Positions 1 to 4,632 of a DNA stretch of 64,000 nt are shown piece after piece; the stretch's first letter is position 1; the number at the start of each line of letters is the position of its first letter. Origin of the DNA: Escherichia coli. GTDB taxonomy: Bacteria > Pseudomonadota > Gammaproteobacteria > Enterobacterales > Enterobacteriaceae. A program made the position numbers and the translations under genes. The DNA is taken from NCBI RefSeq assembly GCF_003334355.1, contig NZ_QOWP01000002.1; one strand, 5' to 3'. The notes under the pieces are model-generated. The model searched no databases. It saw only the letters and a list, made by a program, of their open reading frames with translations, and was not told where the DNA came from.

Positions 1-77
1 AAGCTGTTGAGTCGTTTTAAGTGTAATTCGGGGCAGAATTGGTAAAGAGAGTCGTGTAAAATATCGAGTTCGCACAT
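1..77 (-). CDS. IS10 transposase, N-terminal 26 codons only (gene continues past window edge)
   Basis: Minus-strand ATG at 77..75 followed by codons for MCELDILHDSLYQFCPELHLKRLNSL, the recalled N-terminus of IS10 transposase. Confidence 0.8.
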   Translation of the reverse strand, partial: MCELDILHDSLYQFCPELHLKRLNS

Positions 78-133
78 TTTGTTGTCTGATTATTGATTTT
101 TGGCGAAACCATTTGATCATATGACAAGATGTG
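70..133 (+). ncRNA. RNA-OUT-like antisense hairpin region of IS10 (pOUT transcript directed toward the IS terminus)
   Basis: Inverted repeat cacattttgttgtc (73-86) / gacaagatgtg (123-133) overlapping the transposase start on the opposite strand. Position matches the known IS10 RNA-IN/RNA-OUT layout. Boundaries approximate. Confidence 0.45.
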
Positions 134-184
134 TATCTACCTTAACTTAATGATTTTGATAAAAATCATTAGGGGATTCATCAG

Positions 185-2859
185 AACCCAGCCTGCAACG
201 TGTAGCTAAATACCATAAAAACTTCCCCCATGCGACGCTCGCCGCACTGGCAGAACTGCTGGCGTTAACAGAACCACCAGCCCGCCCTGGTTATCCAATC
301 ATCGAAGACAAAAAGCTGCCTGCACAGCAAAAAGCACGCGATGAATACTGGCGTACGCTGTTACAAACGCTGATGGCATCGCAGCCACAACTGGCAGCAG
401 AAGTGATGCCGTGGTTAAGTACTCAACCCCAGTCAGTGCTGAAGAGTTATTTATCGGCACCGCCCAAACCGGTTATTGATGGCACCGATAACAGCAATCT
501 GCCAGAAATCCTCGTTTCACCACCGTGGCGTAGTAAGAAAAAAATGACAGCTCCACGTCTTGATTTGGCACCGCTCGAATTAACTCCGCAAGTTTACTGG
601 CAACCAGGCGAACAAGAGAGGCTTGCCGCCACTGAGCCTGCCCGTTATTTCAGCACGGAATCTCTTGCGCAACGCATGGAACAAAAAAGTGGACGAGTTG
701 TATTACAGGAACTGGGTTTTGGGGATGATGTATGGCTGTTTCTGAATTATATACTCCCCGGAAAACTGGATGCTGCACGCAATTCACTCTTTGTTCAGTG
801 GCATTACTACCAGGGGCGGGTTGAAGAGATCCTGAATGGCTGGAACTCCCCGGAAGCACAATTAGCAGAACAGGCGCTCCGCAGCGGTCACATAGAAGCG
901 TTAATTAACATATGGGAAAATGACAACTACTCACATTATCGTCCGGAAAAGAGTGTCTGGAACCTGTATTTATTGGCACAGTTGCCGCGTGAGATGGCTT
1001 TGACCTTCTGGCTGCGTATCAATGAGAAAAAGCATCTGTTCGCGGGTGAGGACTATTTTCTCAGTATCCTCGGATTGGATGCGCTACCAGGTCTGCTGTT
1101 GGCTTTTTCACATCGTCCAAAAGAAACATTTCCGTTAATTTTAAATTTTGGCGCAACAGAACTGGCGCTGCCTGTTGCCCACGTCTGGCGACGTTTCGCG
1201 GCGCAGCGTGATCTGGCTCGCCAGTGGATTTTACAATGGCCGGAACATACGGCTAGTGCACTTATCCCTCTTGTCTTTACCAAACCCAGCGATAATAGCG
1301 AAGCCGCATTACTTGCCCTGCGTTTACTGTACGAACAGGGACATGGCGAATTGCTACAAACCGTGGCAAACCGCTGGCAGCGTACAGATGTATGGTCTGC
1401 CCTAGAGCAGTTGCTTAAACAGGGTCCAATGGACATTTACCCGGCACGCATTCCAAAAGCCCCTGATTTCTGGCATCCGGCAATGTGGTCCAGGCCTCGA
1501 CTTATCACTAATAATCAGCCTGTTACCGGTGACGCTCTGGAAATTATCGGCGAAATGCTGCGCTTTACCCAGGGGGGACGTTTTTATAGCGGGCTGGAAC
1601 AACTGAAAACGTTCTGCCAGCCACAAACGCTGGCAGCTTTTGCCTGGGATCTCTTCACTGCGTGGCAACAAGCTGGTGCCCCCGCAAAAGACAACTGGGC
1701 ATTTCTGGCGTTAAGTCTCTTTGGTGACGAAAGCACGGCACGGGATCTGACGACACAGATCCTCGCCTGGCCACAAGAAGGCAAATCTGCCCGTGCTGTC
1801 AGCGGCCTGAACATCCTTACCCTGATGAATAATGATATGGCGCTGATACAGCTGCATCATATATCGCAACGGGCTAAATCCCGCCCCTTACGTGATAACG
1901 CGGCGGAATTTCTTCAGGTGGTCGCAGAAAATCGCGGGCTAAGCCAGGAAGAGCTAGCGGACAGATTAGTCCCAACCCTGGGCCTTGATGATCCGCAGGC
2001 GTTGAGTTTTGATTTTGGTCCCCGGCAGTTTACCGTTCGCTTCGATGAAAACCTCAACCCGGTTATCTTTGATCAGCAAAACGTTCGCCAGAAAAGCGTT
2101 CCCCGTTTGCGCGCCGATGACGATCAACTGAAAGCGCCCGAGGCACTGGCCCGACTAAAAGGGCTAAAAAAAGATGCTACTCAGGTGAGCAAAAACCTGC
2201 TCCCGCGTCTTGAAGCTGCCCTACGTACCACCCGACGCTGGTCGCTGGCAGATTTTCATTCTCTGTTTGTTAATCATCCCTTTACCCGTCTGGTTACCCA
2301 GCGATTAATATGGGGGGGTTATCCGGCAAATGAACCGCGTCGTTTACTCAACGCCTTTCGTGTGGCCGCAGAGGGGGAGTTCTGCAATGCGCAAGATGAG
2401 CCAATTGACCTGCCTGCGGACGCTCTGATTGGCATTGCCCACCCGTTAGAAATGGCAGTAGAAATGCGCAGTGAATTTGCACAGCTTTTTGCCGATTACG
2501 AAATTATGCCGCCTTTTCGCCAGTTGTCGCGCCGCACGGTGCTGCTCACACCTGACGAGTCAACCAGTAACAGCCTGACTCGCTGGGAAGGTAAATCCGC
2601 TACCGTTGGGCAACTTATGGGAATGCGATACAAAGGCTGGGAGTCAGGCTATGAGGACACATTTGTCTATGACCTGGGCGAGTACCGGCTGGTCCTTAAG
2701 TTTTCACCCGGTTTTAACCACTACAATGTTGATAGCAAAGCGTTAATGAGCTGCCGTTCTCTTCGAGTGTACCGTGACAATAAATCCGTCACTTTTGCCG
2801 AACTTGATGTGTTTGATTTGAGTGAGGCGTTAAGCGCACCTGACGTCATTTTCCATTAA
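185..2859 (+). pseudogene. yehI: yehI-like DUF4132 protein, 3' portion; 5' end replaced by the IS10 insertion
   Basis: Reading frame is open from 163 to the stop at 2859 with protein-like translation, but has no ATG/GTG/TTG before 373. The ORF track gives 828 aa from the first internal Met. K-12 yehI is 1210 aa (recall) and lies directly upstream of yehK. Confidence 0.7.
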
Positions 2860-2919
2860 AACACAGCGGGCAGTGATGCGACTGCCCGTTATCTACACGA
2901 CTTACCAGCGGGGAAAGCG

Positions 2920-3237
2920 ATGATCGTGCAAAAAGAGCTGGTTGCTATTTACGATTATGAGGTCCCTGTACCTGAAGATCCGTTTTCCTTCAGACTTGAG
3001 ATCCATAAATGCCCTGAATTATTTACAGGTTCCGTCTATCGACTGGAGCGATTCCGGCTACATCCAACATTTCATCAACGTGATCGAGAAGATGCTGACC
3101 CGCTAATAAATGATGCGTTGATTTATATAAGAGATGAGTGTAATGATGAGCGGAAATTACGAGGTGAATCACCTGAAACTGTAATAGCAATTTTTAATCG
3201 TGAACTACAGAATATATTCAACCAAGAAATAGAATAA
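2920..3237 (+). CDS. yehK: YehK, small protein of unknown function (105 aa)
   Basis: ORF-track 105-aa ORF located between yehI and yehL, matching K-12 order and length. Confidence 0.8.
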   Translation: MIVQKELVAIYDYEVPVPEDPFSFRLEIHKCPELFTGSVYRLERFRLHPTFHQRDREDADPLINDALIYIRDECNDERKLRGESPETVIAIFNRELQNIFNQEIE

Positions 3238-3408
3238 TATACTCTAAATAATTCAAATTGGTCCGATCCGGCGCAACGTCCCAATGGCCTGGATTATAAA
3301 TCTCATTATCTTAATTGCAACGGGGTCCAGCCGTGGTTATAATTCGTTCGTTGGAACACGATGTTGCACAGGCTGCGGTGTTGGGCCTGAAAATAGTAAA
3401 TAAAAGAA

Positions 3409-3432
3409 CCTGCCTCACCAGCAGGTTTTTTT
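3409..3432 (+). terminator. Rho-independent terminator-like hairpin between yehK and yehL
   Basis: cctgc-ctcacca-gcagg stem-loop followed by ttttttt. Confidence 0.5.
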
Positions 3433-3543
3433 ATTTACTGTGATCTGCTTTCCAGATATTTTCCGCTCAAACAACTAATGCGCCAAACATTTATTGCGCG
3501 TAAAATATCGTTTATTTCATTAATACATTTCAGGGATGAATAT

Positions 3544-4632
3544 ATGTCACCGCAGAATAATCATCTGCAGCGTCCGCCTGCCGCTGTGTTATACGCCGAT
3601 GAACTGGCAAAATTAAAACAAAATGATAACGCACCTTGCCCGCCCGGTTGGCAGTTAAGTTTGCCTGCGGCCCGTGCTTTTATCCTTGGCGATAGCGCGC
3701 AAAATATTAGCCGTAAAGTGGTGATTAGTCCCTCTGCTGTCGAACGTATGTTAGTCACTCTTGCCACCGGGCGCGGTTTGATGTTGGTGGGGGAACCTGG
3801 CACCGCAAAATCTCTCCTGTCTGAATTACTGGCAACCGCTATTAGCGGCGATGCCGGGTTAACCATCCAGGGCGGCGCATCTACCACTGAAGATCAAATC
3901 AAATACGGCTGGAACTACGCTCTGCTTATCAATCATGGTCCATCAACGGAAGCGCTGGTCCCTGCCCCGCTTTACCAGGGAATGCGCGACGGCAAAATCG
4001 TCCGTTTTGAAGAGATAACGCGTACACCGCTGGAAGTGCAAGACTGTCTGTTAGGTATGCTTTCTGACCGGGTTATGACGGTGCCGGAACTCACCAGTGA
4101 AGCCAGTCAGCTCTATGCGCGAGAAGGCTTTAATATTATTGCCACTGCCAATACCCGCGATCGCGGCGTCAATGAGATGAGTGCCGCGCTAAAGCGTCGC
4201 TTCGATTTTGAAACTGTCTTTCCGATTATGGATTTCGCCCAGGAGCTGGAACTGGTCGCCAGTGCTTCGGCGCGTTTGCTGGCCCATAGCGGTATTCCGC
4301 ATAAAGTGCCTGACGCGGTACTGGAGTTACTGGTCCGCACCTTCCGCGATCTGCGTGCCAACGGCGAAAAGAAAACGTCAATGGATACCCTGACGGCAAT
4401 TATGTCCACCGCTGAAGCCGTGAACGTGGCCCACGCAGTGGGCGTCCGCGCCTGGTTTTTAGCGAATCGCGCAGGTGAGCCAGCCGACCTGGTGGACTGC
4501 ATTGCCGGAACCATCGTCAAAGATAATGAAGAAGATCGCGCTCGTCTGCGCCGTTACTTCGAACAGCGTGTCGCCACACATAAAGAAGCTCACTGGCAGG
4601 CTTATTATCAAGCCCGCCACCGCCTGCCGTGA
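3544..4632 (+). CDS. yehL: YehL, MoxR-like AAA+ ATPase (362 aa)
   Basis: Walker A GEPGTAKS at 3790-3813; Walker B-like IVRFEEI; LKRRFDF motif typical of MoxR-type ATPases. Start trimmed to Met 23 of the ORF (MSPQNN) to match the K-12 length. Confidence 0.9.
   Translation: MSPQNNHLQRPPAAVLYADELAKLKQNDNAPCPPGWQLSLPAARAFILGDSAQNISRKVVISPSAVERMLVTLATGRGLMLVGEPGTAKSLLSELLATAISGDAGLTIQGGASTTEDQIKYGWNYALLINHGPSTEALVPAPLYQGMRDGKIVRFEEITRTPLEVQDCLLGMLSDRVMTVPELTSEASQLYAREGFNIIATANTRDRGVNEMSAALKRRFDFETVFPIMDFAQELELVASASARLLAHSGIPHKVPDAVLELLVRTFRDLRANGEKKTSMDTLTAIMSTAEAVNVAHAVGVRAWFLANRAGEPADLVDCIAGTIVKDNEEDRARLRRYFEQRVATHKEAHWQAYYQARHRLP

Follow-up and report, generated by a model that had tools for sequence, protein, structure and literature searches.

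The locus described here raises the question whether an IS10 element that has interrupted yehI transcribes the genes lying behind it from its outward promoter pOUT. The window, i.e. the whole stretch of 64,000 nucleotides of Escherichia coli DNA that was analysed, begins inside the element and continues through the 3' part of yehI to yehK and the yehLMPQ block. A sequence-only reading of this DNA had proposed that pOUT reads into the yehI remnant and into the downstream yeh cluster. The explanation that we regard as probable is more restricted: the window starts in the IS10-Left end, likely of a Tn10 located in yehI, with limited read-out from pOUT and without activation of yehLMPQ.

IS10 occupies window positions 1-184 with its outside end, which is of the IS10-Left type. 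For the typing this segment was aligned with both IS10 copies of the Tn10 on plasmid R100; position n of the insertion sequence (IS nt n) is found at 185-n in the window (Table 1). All 184 of 184 bases were identical to the copy on the gltS/jemA side (IS10-Left), whereas the copy on the tetD side (IS10-Right) differed at six positions (IS nt 24, 25, 27, 47, 83 and 107). The tip of the element is formed by the terminal inverted repeat CTGATGAATCCCC on the minus strand at 171-184, which is its sole match in the window. The remainder of the IS10 element lies upstream of the window.

Compared to IS10-Left of Tn10 on R100/NR1, the terminal repeat, the transposase start, the Dam site, the pOUT region and the RNA-OUT structure are all alike and no sequence difference is visible; only the location in yehI is specific to this lineage. 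The role of the GATC Dam site in IS10 has been described previously (PMC5006887). The classically studied IS10-Right (Simons et al. 1983) has the same architecture, and its IS nt 108-184 including pOUT are identical to the window. Of the six substitutions that separate it from the window within IS nt 1-184, two (nt 83 and nt 107) fall within the overlap of RNA-IN and RNA-OUT. The components are textbook features of IS10 and Tn10 in an arrangement that is already known. The terminal repeat and the match to Rfam RF00240 confirm the earlier identification of the element as IS10, although its IS10-Left type and the likely complete Tn10 had been overlooked.

Table 1. Features at the IS10-yehI junction and in the adjacent yeh genes (window coordinates)
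Feature	Position	Strand	Basis
IS10-Left, outermost 184 bp (IS nt 184 to 1)	1..184	-	100% identity to the gltS/jemA-side IS10 of Tn10 on R100
Transposase ORF, first 77 nt (ATG 77-75 = IS nt 108-110)	1..77	-	Sequence reading; matches R100 CDS annotation
pOUT, putative: CAGAAT (34-39), 17-bp spacer, TAAAAT (57-62)	34..62	+	Best hexamer pair; identity to IS10-Right
RNA-OUT antisense RNA, IS10-Left variant	70..139	+	RF00240; stem 72-85/121-134, U·G 78/128
Dam site GATC (IS nt 67-70), pIN region	115..118		Sequence reading
A/U-rich 12-bp hairpin at the IS tip, without U-tract	146..173	+	Fold of 139-200; no terminator flag
IS10 outside-end terminal repeat CTGATGAATCCCCT	171..184	-	Single match in 64 kb
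C-rich, G-poor untranslated stretch, candidate Rho loading region	180..300	+	Base composition, stops in all frames
9-bp target-site duplication AACCCAGCC (yehI nt 959-967)	185..193		Also at the left junction; single copy in PSS-12
3' yehI remnant, nt 959-3633, codons 320-1210, DUF4132 kept	185..2859	+	Alignment to MG1655 and PSS-12 yehI
G+C-rich hairpin just past the yehI stop codon, poor U-tract on the plus strand	2865..2890	+	Fold, -18.3 kcal/mol
yehK, first intact gene downstream	2920..3237	+	ORF list; PSS-12 and MG1655 annotation
Orz-like small RNA gene, terminator stem 3407-3427 followed by TTTTTATTT	3357..3436	+	RF02083, 101.3 bits
yehL, first gene of the yehLMPQ block, past the terminator	3544..4632	+	Annotation transferred from PSS-12

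The junction that had been implied at position 184 was found between 184 and 185, where window position 185 corresponds to nucleotide 959 of the 3633-nt yehI; the insertion is located at yehI nt 959-967. On the 828-aa product of the yehI remnant the Pfam domain PF13569 (DUF4132) is recorded. An exact look-up of this 828-aa ORF retrieved the Logan contig L008 (6 samples), at whose start the final 30 nt of IS10-Left lead into the junction. Since this contig carries the junction and shows 0 mismatches to the window across 12.7 kb, the junction is real. The insertion is also recent: the genome of PSS-12, with 5 differences to the window in 25,816 positions, contains an intact yehI with an empty insertion site. 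PSS-12 originates from human faeces in Ecuador. Among 5426 complete E. coli genomes none was found to contain the IS10-yehI junction. A laboratory K-12 strain carrying Tn10 was ruled out as the source of the DNA, the identity between the window and MG1655 being 98.2-99.3%.

The antisense RNA of the element is encoded directly at its outside end. Rfam model RF00240 matches 70-139 on the plus strand over the full model (97.3 bits, gathering score 41, E 2.3e-20). The minimum free energy fold agrees with the Rfam consensus structure, in which a 14-bp basal stem is formed by pairing of 72-85 with 121-134, and its energy of -21.3 kcal/mol (z -3.9) was not reached by any of 200 shuffled sequences. 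The hairpin arms had earlier been placed at 73-86 and 123-133 with one mismatch in the stem; this is roughly right, but these arms are of unequal length and slightly off register, and the supposed mismatch is a U·G wobble in the RNA between T78 (IS nt 107) and G128. It results from the IS10-Left polymorphism at IS nt 107, since IS10-Right and the Rfam consensus have a C-G pair at this position. The exchange costs 2.6 kcal/mol of predicted stability (-23.9 kcal/mol for IS10-Right). The transposase start codon (77-75, minus strand) lies inside the RNA-OUT gene (70-139), so that the 5' part of RNA-OUT is antisense to the region of the transposase start. The established function of RNA-OUT is the antisense repression of transposase translation. 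RNA-OUT has been described as a discrete RNA of 69 nt that ends at IS nt 47, i.e. window position 138 (PMC5006887). Its stem is followed by AUCUACCU instead of a U-tract and was not flagged as terminator-like.

The putative pOUT was recognised as the best hexamer pair upstream of RNA-OUT, its TAAAAT being separated from the 5' end of RNA-OUT (position 70) by 7 nt. In a relaxed hexamer search it matches the consensus at 7 of 12 positions, which is too far from consensus for a simple promoter scan and explains why the consensus scan of 1-3600 did not report it. Its assignment relies on the comparison with IS10-Right, to which the window is 100% identical from IS nt 108 to 184: since IS10-Left and IS10-Right are identical in this region, the sequence is taken to be the classical promoter, whose activity is known from the literature. 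The earlier observation on the promoter had been given for the range 70-400. The promoter is indeed present at this end of the element, but upstream of that region, at 34-62. The proposed outward direction of pOUT and RNA-OUT on the plus strand, the same as that of yehI and yehK, is in agreement with the RF00240 match and the gene annotation. IS10 has a second outward promoter, OUTIIp, but its position (IS nt 1000-1230, close to the inside end) makes it irrelevant to the outside end considered here.

For transcription from pOUT to the outside of the element we rely on published work. According to a review citing Simons 1983, pOUT transcripts partly extend into neighbouring genes, with a strength of about 10% of lacUV5 (PMC9330008). 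In evolution experiments, selection yielded IS10 elements oriented with pOUT towards otsB and inserted between +12 and +13 of this gene (PMC2744996), and read-out from pOUT into flanking genes has also been documented elsewhere (PMC4574204). The literature thus agrees with the earlier statement that activation of adjacent genes by IS10 read-through is a known phenomenon. With pOUT read-out being established in this way, low-level transcription into the yehI remnant seems plausible. A terminator scan detected no intrinsic-terminator-like site on the plus strand between 139 and 942. Due to this result and the lack of a U-tract after the RNA-OUT stem, some transcription from pOUT across position 184 into the yehI remnant is likely.

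A transcript starting at pOUT would not be translated over its first part. At the junction all three frames are closed (frame 1 by stop codons at 148-160, frame 2 at 170 and 203, frame 3 at 207 and 216), and the earliest start codon in the yehI frame is the ATG at 373, which is not preceded by a Shine-Dalgarno sequence. The RNA would therefore remain untranslated for about 300 nt. The first part of the yehI flank is rich in C and poor in G: 78-nt windows with start positions between 174 and 226 contain 28-31 C and 14-17 G (C/G ratio of about 2), and the ratio at approximately 180-300 is among the highest between 139 and 3400. In Rho-dependent polarity, C-rich and G-poor RNA that is not translated is a good substrate of Rho, and Tn10-promoted downstream expression was reportedly found to be Rho-sensitive by Ciampi et al. 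in 1982; a literature search on the Rho sensitivity of Tn10 read-out yielded no useful citable statement. Base composition and lack of translation together suggest that Rho-dependent termination takes place inside the yehI remnant.

Further obstacles are encountered downstream of yehI. The hairpin just past the yehI stop codon (2865-2890) was classified by the scan as terminator-like for the minus strand only. The distance between the IS end and yehK amounts to 2.7 kb. In the spacer between yehK and yehL a full-length match to RF02083, the OrzO-P antitoxin sRNA family, was detected, which is preceded by a promoter-like site (3315-3343, 10 of 12 consensus positions) and whose 3' end is formed by the terminator at 3407-3436. 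The extended hairpin of this terminator has a predicted energy of -22.5 kcal/mol (z -8.9). Since a strong intrinsic terminator precedes yehL, read-through from pOUT into yehLMPQ seems unlikely.

The orientation, with pOUT/RNA-OUT, yehI, yehK and yehL all on the plus strand, matches that of known IS10 activation events. In the otsBA case in rpoS-null E. coli and the acrEF case in Salmonella, the same promoter faces the activated genes in the same orientation. However, in these cases the element was selected for and is separated by only a few bases from an intact downstream gene that has a ribosome-binding site of its own. In contrast, the insertion described here lies inside an ORF and 2.7 kb away from the next intact gene, with terminators in between and without any sign of selection. 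An intact, translatable gene close to the element and not separated from it by a terminator is not present, as yehI is truncated, yehK is distant and yehL is preceded by the terminator. The insertion therefore shows the defining features of IS10/Tn10 and not those of an activating insertion. Of the earlier proposal that pOUT reads into the yehI remnant and the yeh cluster, the orientation stands, whereas transcription reaching the downstream cluster is made unlikely by the untranslated C-rich RNA and the terminator at 3407-3436.

The nature of the element itself can be approached from the two junctions. Tn10 is defined by tetR/tetA(B) and jemA-C located between two IS10 copies. This inner part is not included in the window, and the public contigs with the junctions end 30 nt inside the insertion sequence. 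Two further contigs, L011 and L012, carry the left junction, at which yehI nt 1-967 are followed by the outside end of IS10-Right (...AAAAACA-AACCCAGCC and then CTGATGAATCCCCTAATGATTTTGGTAAAA). They encode YehI(1-322) fused to PDESPNDFGK, a fusion truncated by the contig end, which was the sole predicted fusion product found in exact look-ups; these look-ups returned no record for the predicted fusions of YehI(1-322) to the IS10 inside end, nor for the predicted full-length fusions to an outside end. The 9-bp sequence AACCCAGCC is present at both junctions, on the right in the window and in L008 and on the left in L011 and L012, as is characteristic of a target duplication. Outside ends were found on both sides, of the IS10-Left type on the right and of the IS10-Right type on the left. 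Taking into account these two outside ends of opposite type and the shared duplication, the element is most likely a complete Tn10, as judged from junctions that stem from differently named sequencing runs and whose co-occurrence in one genome is presumed. The alternative, according to which the window contains a solo insertion sequence of the IS10-Left type (annotated as ISVsa5 in RefSeq) and the left-junction contigs stem from a second, separate insertion event at these 9 bp, is unlikely. It would be compatible with the origin of the junctions from different runs and with the mere 184 bp of the element in the window, and solo copies with the IS10-Left transposase WP_001352368.1 have multiplied in natural E. 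coli chromosomes, as in AR436, where solo IS10-Left-type copies occupy 25 places and share their transposase accession with IS10-Left of R100. However, two insertions into the same 9 bp in mirror orientation and in a near-clonal background (1 mismatch to PSS-12 in 3967 nt) are much less parsimonious than one Tn10. Furthermore, AACCCAGCC is only a partial match to the preferred target site, and the outcome of the look-ups for inside-end fusions also argues against a solo element.

As to the read-out from this presumed Tn10, two opposite scenarios have to be considered. It appears quite unlikely that essentially all pOUT transcripts stop at the RNA-OUT 3' end, leaving the flank silent save for polarity. 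The discrete nature of RNA-OUT and its long and stable stem would fit such an efficient stop, but the stem is followed by neither a U-tract nor a site flagged as terminator-like, it is slightly weaker in IS10-Left than in IS10-Right, and published transcripts leave IS10 and activate genes (PMC2744996, PMC9330008). Even less likely is the opposite scenario, in which read-through from pOUT substantially transcribes the yehI remnant, yehK and yehL-M-P-Q and the insertion constitutes an activating mutation. The correct orientation of pOUT, the documented activation of neighbouring genes (PMC2744996, PMC4574204, PMC9330008) and the first approximately 750 nt past RNA-OUT, which are devoid of intrinsic terminator-like sites, could be cited in its favour. 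However, the RNA would be untranslated from position 70 to at least 373 in a C-rich and G-poor flank, the nearest intact gene is remote, the hairpin at 2865-2890 and the strong terminator at 3407-3436 would have to be passed before yehL, and the known activating insertions are located directly upstream of an intact gene.

Limited read-out from the IS10-Left end of a Tn10 thus remains the favoured explanation, and we infer its extent in this strain as follows. Tn10 presumably inserted at yehI nt 959-967 in a natural, non-K-12 lineage of E. coli close to PSS-12. A minority of the transcripts initiated at pOUT would leave the element at position 184 and enter the yehI remnant, in line with what experiments on IS10 and Tn10 have shown elsewhere, and most of this RNA would be terminated by Rho inside the remnant. 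The surviving RNA would encounter the hairpin after the yehI stop codon, yehK and finally the terminator at 3407-3436 ahead of yehL. The consequences would be the loss of yehI and a polar effect on yehK, accompanied by at most a weak constitutive transcription that covers the remnant and perhaps yehK, whereas yehLMPQ would not be activated.

A consequence beyond this would arise if pOUT transcription were combined with re-initiation at the ATG at 373 or at a later start codon, which could give rise to a truncated YehI consisting of DUF4132 only, or if yehK were de-repressed, in either case with a selectable phenotype. We consider this highly improbable. If true, such a truncated YehI or yehK phenotype would explain the occurrence of the Tn10 lineage in several independent sequencing runs. 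The insertion would be of interest in its own right only if the truncated DUF4132 protein or yehK were produced and selected for. Otherwise, the locus illustrates clearly that an argument from orientation, although correct by the textbook, overstates the consequences once the translation status, Rho and the downstream terminators are taken into account.

For the annotation, yehI::Tn10 is the appropriate designation, the IS10-Left end being the one on the side of the 3' yehI remnant; this matters little beyond the annotation itself, since yehI is inactivated and the RNA leaving the element is probably scarce and short-lived. An additional segment of approximately 1 kb in some relatives, which had been suspected to be a zor-orz locus, turned out to be an IS903B in yehP.

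The IS10-Left and IS10-Right copies of Tn10 differ at only two positions within the first 35 nt of RNA-OUT, window positions 78 and 102 (IS nt 107 and 83, respectively), both of which lie inside the RNA-IN/RNA-OUT overlap. RNA-IN has IS nt 83 as its third base, and the IS10-Left RNA-OUT would therefore be expected to mismatch the IS10-Right RNA-IN at this position. The pairing of the two RNAs is reported (Kittle et al. 1989) to start at the RNA-IN end that includes IS nt 83, and the predicted mismatch would thus fall at the pairing-start end.

In the classical description, IS10-Left is the weakly active copy. Solo elements of the IS10-Left type, which are annotated as ISVsa5 and share their transposase accession with IS10-Left of R100, were detected in natural E. 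coli at up to approximately 25 places per chromosome.

The preferred Tn10 site is 5'-GCTNAGC-3' (quoted in PMC2744996). Since the target AACCCAGCC fits this site in its right half only (CAGC), it is predicted to be no strong hot spot.

The comparison of public loci (L005, L006, L007 and L009 for yehI, L013 for yehP) revealed independent disruptions of the yeh cluster in further E. coli. In several public contigs yehI is interrupted by a 1-nt gap, which leaves ORFs of 346/381 aa and 828 aa, IS903B was found inside yehP in strain 102651, and IS1A adjoins yehI in H9Ecoli. Furthermore, yehQ contains an internal stop in both PSS-12 and MG1655, and the DUF4132 paralogue located upstream is intact in PSS-12 (WGR+DUF4132, 1264 aa) but exists as a pseudogene in MG1655.

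Coordinates of features in the window and in the public loci compared
Feature	Sequence	Position	Strand	Remarks
Target AACCCAGCC	window	185-193
Orz-like sRNA region, yehK-yehL spacer	window	3315-3436	+	RF02083 match, promoter-like site, terminator
Promoter-like site	window	3315-3343	+	belongs to the Orz-like match
RF02083 match	window	3357-3432	+	full-length, 101.3 bits
Solo IS10-Left-type element	L010	1356-2684		E. coli AR436
yehP with IS903B	L013	6731-8933		strain 102651

The spacer between yehK and yehL matched the OrzO-P family of type I antitoxin sRNAs, and the terminator of this match is bidirectional. No Zor-like toxin ORF was identified in the 306-nt spacer, and the match may represent an orphan antitoxin sRNA gene. 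The spacer is also present in MG1655 with 99% identity, although this strain was stated to be without zor-orz loci (PMC3919570).
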